Part shown: piece by piece, positions 9,579 to 55,781 of the stretch | How positions within the stretch are numbered: position 1 is the stretch's first letter | Layout of the letters: the number at the start of each line of letters is the position of its first letter | DNA from: Lysobacteraceae bacterium | GTDB lineage: Bacteria > Pseudomonadota > Gammaproteobacteria > Xanthomonadales > Rhodanobacteraceae | DNA length: 64,000 nt | Assembly (NCBI GenBank): GCA_018970895.1 | Contig: JAGWVM010000001.1 | Span: 2,289-66,288 of the forward strand | Direction of reading: 5' to 3' | Made by a program: the position numbers and the translations under genes | Notes under the pieces: generated by a model | What the model was told of the DNA's origin: nothing | What the model saw: only the letters and a program-made list of their open reading frames with translations | The model's database searches: none

Positions 9579-9605
9579 TGACCAAGTCCGCCGGCCCGCC
9601 GCGCA
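9579..9605 (+). promoter_or_regulatory. Candidate ECF promoter upstream of tssB
   Basis: TGACCAAGTC-N12-GCGCA; one of four same-spacing copies, each before a transcription unit. Confidence 0.65.
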
Positions 9606-9837
9606 CTAAACCGGTGGAGGGGTCTAGAGACCCCGATGAACTCGCTCGCTCGGATTGGCTCCGCATGGCCGCGCGGAGCGCCGGTGCCGGTCGGTTCCGT
9701 TTCAGCCGTCAGGGGGACATCGCATGGCGCCAGATACCGGATCTGCGGCGGAATTCCGCGGCGTTCCGGCGTGCTCGCGCGCGCTGGCCCCGGTCCGTCC
9801 TCATCACCGGTAGTCCCTGTTCGAAGGAGACACAAGC

Positions 9838-10356
9838 ATGGCCAAGCAAAGCAGTCAGAAGTTCATCGCGAGGAACCGCGCACCGCGCGTGCAGATCGAG
9901 TACGACGTGGAGGTCTACGGCGCACAGAAGAAGGTGCAGGTCCCGTTCGTGATGGGCGTGATGTCCGACCTGTCCGGCGCCAACAACGCCGAGCTGCCGG
10001 CGATCGAGGACCGCAAGGCCCTGGAGATCGACGTGGACAACTTCGACCAGCGCCTGCAATCGATGAAGCCGCGCGTCTCCTTCGCCGTGCCCAACACGCT
10101 GACCGGTGAGGGCAACCTCAACGTCGACATCACCTTCGAGAGCATGGACGACTTTTCCCCGGCGGCGGTGGCCCGCAAGGTCGCGCCGATCGCCAAGCTG
10201 CTCGAGGCACGCACCCAGCTGTCCAATCTGGCCACCTACATGGACGGCAAGGCGGGTGCCGAGAAGCTGATCGCGCAGGCGATCAACGACCCGGCGCTTC
10301 TGCAATCACTGGCGTCGGCACCCAAGCCCGGCGACGAAGGCAAGGACGGGGAGTAA
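9838..10356 (+). CDS. tssB: T6SS contractile sheath small subunit
   Basis: RNRAPRVQIEYDVE, PFVMGVMSDLSG, DDFSP motifs. Confidence 0.97.
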   Translation: MAKQSSQKFIARNRAPRVQIEYDVEVYGAQKKVQVPFVMGVMSDLSGANNAELPAIEDRKALEIDVDNFDQRLQSMKPRVSFAVPNTLTGEGNLNVDITFESMDDFSPAAVARKVAPIAKLLEARTQLSNLATYMDGKAGAEKLIAQAINDPALLQSLASAPKPGDEGKDGE

Positions 10357-10360
10357 GCAC

Positions 10361-11851
10361 ATGGCAACCGAAAAGCTGGCCGAACAGGGCGCCACCGTCA
10401 CCGCCGAAGCGAGCGACTTCGCCGCGTTGCTCAACAAGGAGTTCAAGCCCAAGAGCGAGCGCGCCCGGGAAGAGGTCGAATCGGCCGTCCGGACGCTCGC
10501 CGAGCAGGTGCTTAGCAAATCCGACATCGTCTCCGAAGATGTCACCCAGACCATCAATGCCTACGTGGCCGAGCTCGACCGCAAGATCAGCGAGCAGCTC
10601 AACCACGTCATGCACCACGAGGACTTCCAGAAGCTCGAGAGCGCCTGGCGCGGCCTGCACCACCTGGTCAACAACACCGAGACCGATCAGCAGCTGAAGA
10701 TCCGCGTCATGAACATCTCCAAGAAGGAGCTGGGCAAGACGCTCAAGCGCTACAAGGGTACCGCCTGGGACCAGAGCCCGATCTTCAAGAAGATGTACGA
10801 AGAGGAATACGGCCAGCTCGGCGGCGAACCTTACGGCTGCCTGGTTGGCGACTACTACTTCGACCACAGCCCGCCCGACGTGGAAATGCTCGCCGGCATC
10901 GCCCAGGTGGCCTCGGCCGCGCACGCGCCGTTCATCGCCGCGGCCAACTCCACGCTGATGGGCATGGACAGCTGGAACGAGCTGGCCAATCCCCGCGACC
11001 TGGCCAAGATCTTCTCCACGCCCGAGTACGCATCGTGGCGTTCGCTGCGCGAGTCCGAGGACGCCAAGTACCTGGGCCTGACCATGCCGCGCACGCTGGC
11101 GCGCCTGCCGTACGGCGCAGCCACCAACCCGGTGGAGGAGTTCAACTTCGAGGAGGACACCTCGGGCGCCGACTCGTCCAAGTACACCTGGCAGAACGCC
11201 GCCTACGCGATGGCGGTGAACATCAATCGCTCGTTCAAGGCCTACGGCTGGTGCTCGCGGATCCGTGGCATCGAGTCCGGTGGCGCCGTGGAGGGCCTGC
11301 CCGTGCATACCTTCCCGAGCGACGATGGCGGCGTGGACATGAAGTGCCCGACCGAGATCGCGATCACCGACCGGCGCTCGGCCGAGCTGGACAAGATGGG
11401 CCTGATGCCGCTGGTCCATCGCAAGAATTCGGACATGGCCGCCTTCATCAGCGCGCAGTCGCTGGCCAGGCCGGAGGAGTACGACGACCCGGACGCCACC
11501 GCCAACGCCGCGTTGAGTTGCCGCCTGCCGTACCTGTTTGCCGCCAGCCGCTTCGCGCACTACCTGAAGTGCATCGTGCGCGACAAGATCGGCTCGTTCT
11601 CCAGCCGCGACCAGATGCAGAGCTGGCTGACCAACTGGGTCATGAACTACGTCGACGGCGACCCGGTGAACTCCAGCGAGGAGACCAAGGCGCGCAAGCC
11701 GCTGTCGGCCGCCGAGGTGGTGGTGGAAGAGGTGGAGGGAGCACCTGGGTATTACACCTCCAAGTTCTATCTGAAGCCGCATTACCAGCTCGAGGGTCTC
11801 ACCGTTTCGCTGCGACTGGTATCGCGCCTGCCGTCCGCGGCCAAGGCCTGA
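10361..11851 (+). CDS. tssC: T6SS contractile sheath large subunit
   Basis: FQKLESAWRGL, EEEYGQLGGEPYG, KCPTEIAITDRR, SRFAHYLK motifs. Confidence 0.97.
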   Translation: MATEKLAEQGATVTAEASDFAALLNKEFKPKSERAREEVESAVRTLAEQVLSKSDIVSEDVTQTINAYVAELDRKISEQLNHVMHHEDFQKLESAWRGLHHLVNNTETDQQLKIRVMNISKKELGKTLKRYKGTAWDQSPIFKKMYEEEYGQLGGEPYGCLVGDYYFDHSPPDVEMLAGIAQVASAAHAPFIAAANSTLMGMDSWNELANPRDLAKIFSTPEYASWRSLRESEDAKYLGLTMPRTLARLPYGAATNPVEEFNFEEDTSGADSSKYTWQNAAYAMAVNINRSFKAYGWCSRIRGIESGGAVEGLPVHTFPSDDGGVDMKCPTEIAITDRRSAELDKMGLMPLVHRKNSDMAAFISAQSLARPEEYDDPDATANAALSCRLPYLFAASRFAHYLKCIVRDKIGSFSSRDQMQSWLTNWVMNYVDGDPVNSSEETKARKPLSAAEVVVEEVEGAPGYYTSKFYLKPHYQLEGLTVSLRLVSRLPSAAKA

Positions 11852-54610: not shown

Positions 54611-54641
54611 CCAGCGCTCCGTCGCCGGCGCGGAACGACGG

Positions 54642-55688
54642 TCAGAACTCGTCGGTACCGGAGATCGTGCGCAGCTCGCTGAGACCGCCCGGCGCCAGGT
54701 CCTGCATCAGCTCCGGAAAGCTCAGTCCGACCAGTCGCTGGGCGCGACGCAGCAGGATCGGCAGCGGGCTGGCCGGTTCGTACCTTGCGTAGTACTCGCA
54801 CAGTTCGTCCAGCCGGCGGCGCACGTCCTCCGGGCTCTGGATGCGTCCGGCCGCCACCGCAGCTCCCGCCGCGGCCGGTTCGGTGCCGGCTTCGTCCCCG
54901 GCCATCGTCTCCTCTCCGGAGGCGGTGGCTTCGGGGCTCCGCAGCGCGACCTGCGCCTCGAGGAATTTCTTCAGCTCGTAGGCATCGGAAAGCAGCGGCT
55001 TGAGGTCCGGGCCCAGCGTGCCGATGCGGTCGGTGAACAGCGCGTCGATGGCCTTGCCCAGGTCGAGTATCCGCGCTGCCGCCTCCAGCGAACCGGTGAG
55101 CTGGCTCTCGTCGCAGTCAAGGCAGCAGGCCTCGATGTCGGTCATCGACGGCAGGCCCTCGCCGCTCTCGCTGCCGGACACCTTCAGCGTGCCCTGGGCC
55201 ACGCGCAGGTCGCGCAACGAAAAGCGCCCGATCCGCGGCGAGGCGACGAACGGAGTGTTGCGCAGGTAGGCGAGCACGGCCAGCGGATCGCCCAGTGGCA
55301 CCACGGCATTGACGCGGGCGGTGGGATCGTTGTCGTCTTCGGCGTCGAGCTGCGGGTGCACCGCATCCCAGAAATTCTCGAGCAGGCCGTGCACCAGGCC
55401 CAGGCCGCGGGCCAGGCCGGCCAGGCCCTCGGTGCGCAGCCAGGCGGTGGACAGGCAGGTCGCCACGCGCAGGTCGCGGGTGCGTTCGAACAGGCCGTTG
55501 GACAGGACGATCACCTTGTCCCATTCCGGCTCTTCGGCGGCCTTTACCGCATCGCCCATCGCACGTTCGGCGCGGGGCGCGGCGGCGCGCTCCAGTGCCA
55601 TGAAATCGGCGTCGTATTCCAGGTCCGGGCCGCAGGGGGCGTCCTCGCCCAGCGGTGAGAGAAAGGTCGTCAGCAGGTCGTCGGACAT
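54642..55688 (-). CDS. tssA: T6SS TssA (ImpA N-terminal domain)
   Basis: GPDLEYDADF, TRDLRVA, LLENFWDAVHPQLD, YEPASPLPILLRRAQRL. Confidence 0.95.
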   Translation of the reverse strand: MSDDLLTTFLSPLGEDAPCGPDLEYDADFMALERAAAPRAERAMGDAVKAAEEPEWDKVIVLSNGLFERTRDLRVATCLSTAWLRTEGLAGLARGLGLVHGLLENFWDAVHPQLDAEDDNDPTARVNAVVPLGDPLAVLAYLRNTPFVASPRIGRFSLRDLRVAQGTLKVSGSESGEGLPSMTDIEACCLDCDESQLTGSLEAAARILDLGKAIDALFTDRIGTLGPDLKPLLSDAYELKKFLEAQVALRSPEATASGEETMAGDEAGTEPAAAGAAVAAGRIQSPEDVRRRLDELCEYYARYEPASPLPILLRRAQRLVGLSFPELMQDLAPGGLSELRTISGTDEF

Positions 55689-55754
55689 GGGCGGACTCGT
55701 CGGGAATGGACCACGGCATTGCCCGGTCGAGGGGCCGGGCGTCTCCCTCTGTAG

Positions 55755-55781
55755 TGCGCAAAAGCCGGCGGGATCCGGTCA
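55755..55781 (-). promoter_or_regulatory. Candidate ECF promoter upstream of tssA
   Basis: Minus strand TGACCGGATC-N12-GCGCA; its TGA doubles as the FUSC stop codon. Confidence 0.6.

Follow-up and report, generated by a model that had tools for sequence, protein, structure and literature searches.

A predicted promoter motif for a kinase-linked ECF43-type sigma factor before operons in a type VI secretion/two-partner-secretion island of a Lysobacteraceae bacterium

We analyzed a stretch of 64,000 nucleotides from a Lysobacteraceae bacterium (assembly GCA_018970895.1, contig JAGWVM010000001.1, positions 2,289 to 66,288; hereafter the window, numbered from its first base), in which the genes of a type VI secretion system (T6SS) and a two-partner-secretion (TPS) adhesin lie beside those of a protein kinase and an extracytoplasmic function (ECF) sigma factor. 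An earlier note on this DNA had proposed that four copies of a bipartite motif in the window are promoters read by the local ECF sigma factor, and it is this motif that we followed through the genome and its relatives. The window has a G+C content of 69.6% and lies on contig C145 of a 3.6-Mb draft genome in 265 contigs, which is 96% complete. Gene identities were taken from Pfam and NCBIfam profile scans of the open reading frames (ORFs) of the window, and for tssB, PAAR, tpsB, tssA and the kinase and sigma genes they agree with those that the note had given.

At the left of the locus, on the plus strand, a Hanks-type Ser/Thr protein kinase gene (5328-8882; Pfam Pkinase, E = 3.6e-39 over residues 335-606 of an open frame of 1184 aa) ends 15 nt before a gene for an ECF sigma factor of the ECF43 type (8898-9467, plus strand), which matches the full profile of PF07638 (E = 2.9e-48) and scores 187 bits against TIGR02999, for which the cut-off is 126 bits. 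The sigma gene is thus flanked by the kinase gene and by tssB, the first of a run of Pfam-identified T6SS genes on the same strand (tssB, tssC, hcp, tagJ, tssE, tssF, tssG and clpV; 9838-19630) that, together with two further plus-strand ORFs lacking a family match in the Pfam scan (19635-21801), makes up a predicted transcription unit (unit 1, 9838-21801). A second predicted unit, recognized from Pfam matches and synteny, consists of the PAAR gene and a TPR-SAM methyltransferase gene (unit 2, 22194-23898, plus strand), and a third holds Pfam-identified genes for a ShlB/POTRA-type TpsB transporter and a 2945-aa DUF5649-repeat protein, followed by an unmatched ORF of 369 aa (unit 3, 42286-54610, plus strand). 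The minus strand carries tssA (54642-55688; Pfam ImpA_N, E = 4.6e-33) and, from 55779, a FUSC-family gene and then efp.

The pattern of the earlier note, TGACCRRRTY-N12-KCGCA, matches the window exactly four times, as the note had reported: at 9579-9605, 22030-22056 and 42184-42210 on the plus strand and at 55755-55781 on the minus strand. All four sites lie between genes, each oriented toward the leading gene of an operon (tssB, PAAR, tpsB and tssA), with distances from motif to start codon of 233, 138, 76 and 67 nt, respectively, which lie within the 65 to 260 nt claimed beforehand. Alignment of 25 sites from nine genomes or loci yielded a refined consensus, TGAYCRGWTY-N12-RCGCAYTA, in which the first block is the predicted -35 element and the second the predicted -10 element; N12 often ends in TT, and the conserved -10 block runs three bases past the original pattern (CGCAYTA). 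Information in this alignment is limited to the two blocks, the 12-nt spacer and both flanks being essentially uninformative. From the first base of the -35 block to the C of CGCA the motif measures 23 nt, a geometry that we take to match the Escherichia coli sigma-E consensus. Classical ECF promoters are of the sigma-E type GGAACTT-N16-TCTGA (E. coli) or of the SigW type TGAAAC-N16-CGTATA, and the motif resembles them in being bipartite, in a -35 block (TGAYC) similar to GAAC, in a -10 block starting with CG, in its rigid spacing and in its strict orientation. Judged by reading the sites, a sigma-54 promoter was rejected, as the spacing does not fit -24 GG and -12 GC elements.

Scored with a weight matrix built from relatives (described below), site 1 (9579-9608, plus strand; TGACCAAGTC-N12-GCGCACTA), the predicted promoter of tssB-tssC-hcp-tagJ-tssE-tssF-tssG-clpV, reaches 21.2 and ranks third in the genome, while site 2 (22030-22059, plus strand; TGACCAGATT-N12-TCGCACCT), the predicted promoter of PAAR and the TPR-methyltransferase gene, scores 17.3 and ranks seventh, its -10 block (TCGCACCT) being the weakest of the four. 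Site 3 (42184-42213, plus strand; TGACCGGATT-N12-GCGCATTA), predicted to serve tpsB, the gene for the 2945-aa repeat protein and the next ORF, ranks second with a score of 25.3. The top rank goes to site 4 (55752-55781, minus strand; TGACCGGATC-N12-GCGCACTA; score 28.4), the predicted promoter of tssA, in which the initial TGA doubles as the stop codon of the FUSC-family gene upstream. The same matrix scan scored no further site in the intergenic gaps of unit 1, and in the window it found none ahead of the kinase-sigma operon either; autoregulation is therefore not indicated, which is a further difference from classical ECF promoters.

Simple counts do not all bear on whether four such sites could arise by chance. 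None of 100 shuffles of the window gave a match to the original pattern, but as these same four sites had served to define the pattern, that result is circular. A loose core, TGACC-N18-CGCA, was rejected as evidence: it has 111 matches in the genome, but spacers of 12, 15, 18, 21, 24 and 27 each give about 110, so that the peak at N18 reflects codon periodicity only and the loose form alone means nothing. The full original pattern, by comparison, matches five times in the whole 3.6 Mb, namely at the four window sites and at one position inside a coding frame (C232:21387). The genome-wide scan that the earlier note had proposed was made with a weight matrix derived from 10 sites at orthologous positions in three relatives only (G249, G326 and G334), in which the spacer columns were zeroed. 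Across the 7,253,832 positions scanned in this genome, the window sites rank 1, 2, 3 and 7, and the location of the motif is nearly exclusive to the island. Other high scorers were set aside on inspection: those on C10, C256 and C100, like the strict match on C232, lie inside coding frames, that on C105 has no gene downstream, and three (C176 and C224, and position 77306 in the relative G177) are 3' ends of tRNA genes. The spacing is equally specific, since TGAYCRRNTY and RCGCAYTA occur together at N12 only (three times in the genome and nine times in the loci of relatives) and not once at N8-11 or N13-17, in agreement with the rigid bipartite architecture claimed at the outset.

Conservation, another check that had been suggested, gave a similar picture: the motif recurs at orthologous intergenic positions with changed spacers. 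Orthologues of the sigma factor within the family are 53-97% identical to it, and the gene order of the entire island is kept in five relatives (G249, G326, G334, G313 and G023). In G249, G326 and G334 the motif stands before tssB, the cargo/PAAR genes and tpsB, and before tssA where that region is assembled, each time with a different spacer; all four exact matches in the G334 genome fall within the island. The tssB site is also retained in three contigs of metagenome-assembled genomes of Dyella (L068, L069 and L070), and variants of it lie upstream of tssB in G313, G023, G451, G177 and G479. Sites related to site 2 precede the cargo/PAAR genes in G249, G326, G334, G313 and G023, and site 3 has orthologues in eight genomes (G249, G326, G334, G455, G468, G483, G497 and G510) and variants in G313, G023 and G177. 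Site 4 has orthologues in G249 and on contig C13 of G326, and is missing in G313, G023 and G177, where an AT-rich region is found instead. The variants follow a pattern of their own: in G313, G023 and G451 the -10 block is retained before tssB and tpsB and the -35 block reads TGGYC or TGGGC, and at the PAAR site of the G313/G023 group TGACC or TGACA is retained and the -10 block altered. As the spacers and flanks of the sites are dissimilar, the element is not a copied repeat. One exact copy of the motif in G249 lies outside the island (L066; C1:1793746-1793775, minus strand), in an intergenic stretch of a lower-G+C region 30 nt upstream of an ORF of 173 aa, which is, from this position, a candidate orphan member of the regulon.

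Several other features lie around the four sites. A direct repeat, TGAACGAATGCTGAAT (TGAAC-N6-TGAAT, with an 11-bp period), occupies 9548-9563 on the plus strand, its end lying 15 nt before the -35 element of site 1. TGAAC-N6-TGAAY occurs only once in the 3.6-Mb genome, at the tssB promoter and not at the other three sites, and it is found in the same place in seven of nine aligned relatives as well as in G479 and G177, together representing four genera (g1, g16, g3 and g11). The repeat may bind an additional regulator, perhaps a protein of the response-regulator type, and so provide a second input at the tssB promoter. Between the sigma gene and the tssB promoter, directly after the former, there is also a G+C-rich inverted repeat (CCCGGCGCGG-CGCA-CCGCGCCGGG, 9492-9515), with a hairpin in the same place in G313; it was not called by a terminator scan because no T-run follows it. 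At most sites a purine-rich stretch containing GGA begins some 8-14 nt past CGCAYTA (GGTGGAGGGG, CATGGGAC, CAGGAGGGG and AGAGGGAGA, within 9609-9630, 22060-22080, 42214-42235 and, on the minus strand, 55730-55751); relatives read ATGGAAGGGC here, and the stretch is weakly informative (0.7-0.8 bit). It could be part of the sequence transcribed first or, at the 5' end of the mRNA, a site of the CsrA/RsmA type. Finally, the gap between site 2 and PAAR contains an ORF of 20 codons (22128-22190) that has a strong ribosome-binding sequence (GGGGAGGGGAG); it ends 3 nt before the PAAR start codon and may encode a leader peptide. An Rfam scan of the window gave no family match.

The sigma factor itself presumably belongs, by its family score, its adjacent kinase and an uncharged threonine-containing motif, to the kinase-activated ECF43 group. 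Its region 2.2 reads TLSAT56ALVNEAYL, with an uncharged SATA where most ECF sigma factors carry an acidic DAED; this positional match was made by eye on the LVNEA context, without an alignment to EcfK or EcfP, the two characterized members introduced below. TLSAT, including S54-A55-T56, is invariant in 10 orthologues. Replacement of DAED by an uncharged threonine motif is the hallmark of the kinase-activated ECF43 group, with QTTA as consensus, STTA in EcfP and QATE in EcfK (PMC13147305). The kinase-sigma pairing is retained at all orthologous loci, and Pfam scans of the neighboring genes turned up no anti-sigma domain. In tblastn comparisons the homology of the kinase with its relatives begins at residues 239-250, and as the relatives align only from about residue 239, the true start of the kinase gene is probably near 6040-6075. 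At E <= 1e-20 the genome contains no match of this kind other than the sigma factor itself.

The closest published parallel is the T6SS of Xanthomonas citri, in which the kinase PknS phosphorylates EcfK (PMC13147305). According to a review (PMC13584744, citing Lima 2022), the regulon of active EcfK includes the AraC-type regulator TagK, which in turn binds and activates 25 genes comprising the T6SS locus and two predicted type V secretion system (T5SS) genes; the statement in the earlier note that EcfK acts through an AraC-type intermediate was thus correct. The note had also stated that no AraC gene is present here. The window genome has eight matches to AraC-type helix-turn-helix domains, none of them on the window contig, and a tblastn search with two TagK-like proteins, from G205 and G412, found no TagK-like gene in the genome at E <= 1e-3. 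The same holds for G249, G483, G334 and G313, in which only generic AraC matches (E of about 1e-6) were found, and three of these (G249, G483 and G313) are complete genomes. A different arrangement is seen in G412, a member of a Xanthomonas-like genus (g70) with the same island, including tpsB/tpsA: here a TagK-like gene lies upstream of tssB and divergent from it, in the position expected for X. citri tagK and occupied in the window by the kinase-sigma pair. The G412 kinase gene lies between clpV and PAAR, and its product is 34% identical to the window kinase over the kinase domain; no sigma gene was found within 100 kb of this locus, and the locus contained no motif copy.

We surveyed 201 genomes of the family with the exact pattern TGAYCRRNTY-N12-RCGCAYTA, which gave 37 matches in 17 genomes, compared with 14 scattered matches for a reversed-pattern control. 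At least two exact matches were present in only 12 genomes, namely 10 of the 11 genomes of the window genus (the window genome included), G334 and G205, and all 12 have an orthologue of the sigma factor. In G219, a genome of the same genus with neither the sigma gene nor TssC, there is no motif match. Conversely, four genomes with a T6SS (TssC 88-93% identical) and no sigma orthologue (G536, G533, G440 and G297) have neither the motif nor the TGAAC box before tssB, their matrix scores remaining within background. Where the sigma gene is 80-110 kb from the island, as in G177 and G479, a homologous variant is found (TGACCnGAAw or TGCCyGTnTT-N12-GCGCATTG); in G177, whose syntenic island lies 80 kb from the sigma gene on the same contig, the variant precedes tssB, PAAR, the vgrG region and tpsB, and for G479 the reading covers the tssB upstream region alone. 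Among more distant relatives of the sigma factor, no matrix matches were obtained in a Luteimonas locus (L074) whose ECF sigma factor is 56% identical, nor in G220 and G198.

G205 is the opposite case, a genome with the kinase and sigma genes beside FUSC-efp and no T6SS. Its four sites (L062, L063, L064 and L065), each with 0-1 mismatches, are dispersed and, like those of G249, G326 and G334, are intergenic and point toward a gene. The genes in question encode an adhesin of the ESPR type that resembles autotransporters and has an extended signal peptide, a GGDEF protein of the membrane, a large protein with IPT/TIG repeats, and an AraC-type protein of 162 aa. The last is 51% identical (E = 1.7e-29) to the TagK-like protein of G412, and a motif in front of a TagK-like gene fits an element belonging to the level above TagK, namely the sigma factor, echoing the published link from EcfK to tagK (PMC13584744). 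This regulon of adhesins, a diguanylate cyclase and a TagK-like gene, concerned with the cell surface and cyclic di-GMP, may be the older regulon of the sigma factor. In G205, as in G177, G119, L071 and L072, all from other genera, the kinase-sigma pair adjoins FUSC and efp, with the sigma and FUSC genes convergent, whereas in the window the 46-kb T6SS/TPS island (9468-55781) lies exactly between the sigma gene and FUSC-efp, implying relocation, insertion or loss of the island at this position. The family-wide distribution therefore supports a motif that tracks the kinase-linked ECF sigma factor and not the T6SS genes.

Taken together, these sequence comparisons make it likely that the four sites serve as promoters for RNA polymerase holoenzyme containing the ECF sigma factor of 8898-9467. 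In the chain of events that we propose, the membrane kinase encoded just upstream would sense a signal and phosphorylate the sigma factor, probably at Thr56 within the uncharged SATA that replaces the acidic core-binding motif, and the phosphorylated sigma factor would then be able to bind core polymerase. At each of the four sites the holoenzyme would initiate transcripts a few bases past CGCAYTA, with the sheath/baseplate/ClpV operon, the PAAR operon, the TPS adhesin operon and tssA as its direct output. With the island placed between the sigma gene and FUSC-efp, target and regulator are physically linked as well.

The claim of the earlier note that the local ECF sigma factor drives the island directly is borne out in its computational parts (architecture, conservation and phyletic pattern), and falls short at one block of genes. 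This block comprises vgrG, a DUF6931 gene, fha, tssK, tssL, tssM, tagF, pppA, ppkA and a small membrane ORF, identified by Pfam on the plus strand (25455-42160; the vgrG start is probably 25455 rather than 25094). It has no motif of its own in the window genome, the best matrix score upstream of vgrG being just 6.4 for a weak match at 24630, and it is separated from the PAAR promoter by two inserted ORFs on the minus strand without family match (23935-24456 and 24537-25253), which stand between vgrG and the TPR-methyltransferase gene. The four sites consequently do not obviously cover every T6SS gene here. In G249 and G326 unit 2 continues into vgrG with abutting genes, an arrangement that the minus-strand ORFs at 23935-25253 interrupt in the window genome, and in these relatives the PAAR promoter would read on through vgrG to ppkA, so that four promoters would span the whole island.

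Other readings of the motif have to be weighed against promoters for this sigma factor. It could be the binding site of a conventional transcription factor that is encoded outside the island, co-occurs with the kinase-sigma pair and recruits sigma-70 polymerase; such a factor might itself be phosphorylated by the kinase, or be a remote functional counterpart of TagK. The precedent of X. citri, where the review has the T6SS and T5SS genes bound by AraC-type TagK and not by EcfK (PMC13584744), speaks for this, as do the eight AraC-type genes elsewhere in the genome and the trans-acting regulator of G177, whose island 80 kb away any diffusible factor could reach. Still, we consider such a factor unlikely, since the two blocks are unrelated in sequence and form neither the direct nor the inverted repeat that dimeric factors would need, the site is always oriented toward the gene, and a scan near site 1 found no sigma-70-type promoter beside it. 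Nor was a TagK-like protein found in the five motif-bearing genomes searched, and the G205 motif stands upstream of a TagK-like gene, as would be expected of the tier above it. If the motif instead serves some other alternative sigma factor, for instance a further ECF encoded in the genome, its proximity to this one would be coincidental. The architecture suits ECF promoters in general, and there are up to eight PF07638-type matches in other genera and about 20 sigma-70 region-2 matches in the Xanthomonas-like G412 and G414. This explanation seems to us quite improbable, however, given the single match to this ECF in the genome at E <= 1e-20, a motif that follows its orthologue across genera, including the T6SS-less G205, and is missing from T6SS-positive genomes without the orthologue, and -35 variants (TGAYC, TGGYC and TGACCnGAAw) that group by sigma clade. 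That the four matches are due to chance, or are a non-functional remnant of, for example, a repeated element, we can hardly credit: the original pattern was indeed written from the four sites, and its loose core is frequent in coding DNA, but the ranks obtained with the relatives-only matrix and the conservation at orthologous positions argue against chance, and the dissimilar spacers and flanks against a copied repeat.

Some observations weigh against assigning the promoters to this sigma factor. The sigma-less genome G149, which has a T6SS, shows a borderline match before tssB with a 13-nt spacer and a score of 11.2, at about the 99th percentile of background. The co-occurrence is among related genomes and hence rests on few independent gains or losses; the clearest cases that separate the sigma factor from the T6SS are single lineages (G205, the genus of G177 and G479, and the four sigma-less genera), and the variants in G313/G023 and G177 were recognized by eye after alignment, the matrix missing some of them. 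Compared with classical ECF promoters, the -10 block is CGCAYTA instead of the usual CGT or TCTGA, and the spacing is about one base longer. For the wiring, a draft genome in 265 contigs and 96% complete could hold a TagK-like gene in unassembled DNA. Lastly, no promoter consensus for EcfK, EcfP or ECF43 sigma factors was found in PMC13147305, PMC6653060, PMC7777525, PMC8999054, PMC7826278 (main text) and PMC8103513 against which the motif could be compared.

Kinase-activated ECF43 sigma factors are a recently understood signaling route for which the papers within reach state no target promoter consensus, and in X. citri, the one T6SS case studied, the sigma factor acts only indirectly, via TagK. 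The present locus supplies a concrete predicted consensus that comes in four natural copies here and in many variants at orthologous positions; if the assignment is right, TGAYCRGWTY-N12-RCGCAYTA would be, as far as we found in the literature, the first consensus predicted for the promoters of an ECF43 sigma factor linked to a T6SS, and the same output, a T6SS and a two-partner adhesin, would be wired with one regulatory tier fewer. Whether the Dyella-like lineage has been rewired in this way, with the TagK tier missing and the ECF43-type sigma factor reading promoters directly on every major T6SS and adhesin operon, is a question on which we see the balance as even. The consensus offers a simple prediction of the members of this sigma factor's regulon in Rhodanobacteraceae genomes and opens both the promoter specificity of the group and the way the cascade evolved to direct tests, and the genome set, which separates the sigma factor with an adjacent island, with a distant island and alone from the island alone, should be useful for studying regulon capture.

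Among known systems, EcfP-PknT of Vibrio parahaemolyticus, also of the ECF43 group, shares with the window pair a threonine-bearing region-2.2 motif (STTA there, SATA here) and a neighboring kinase, and EcfP is reported to be inactive until the threonine of this motif is phosphorylated by that kinase (Iyer 2020, in PMC8999054); its regulon is one of polymyxin resistance, unlike the predicted T6SS and adhesin genes of the window. The resemblance to PknS-EcfK-TagK of the X. citri anti-amoeba T6SS (Bayer-Santos 2018; Lima 2022; PMC13147305; PMC13584744) extends further. Both systems pair a transmembrane Hanks-type kinase with an ECF43-type sigma factor without an anti-sigma factor, both sigma factors have an uncharged threonine-containing motif at the DAED position, and both kinase/sigma pairs are linked to a syntenic T6SS cluster with tagF-pppA-ppkA-fha and a tpsB/tpsA pair. 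The controlled gene sets are likewise similar, a T6SS and a T5SS pair, the set in the window (T6SS operons and tpsB/tpsA) being judged from site position only. The X. citri and window pairs are likened here by family and context, the nearest sequence comparison being the G412 kinase, 34% identical and from a locus in which no sigma gene was found. They differ in that the window genome has no TagK-like AraC gene that we could find and carries the sigma-type motif directly on the structural operons. Control of a T6SS by a kinase-activated ECF sigma factor is thus of a known kind and involves no new principle; what would be new is the predicted promoter consensus and a wiring that dispenses with the TagK tier.

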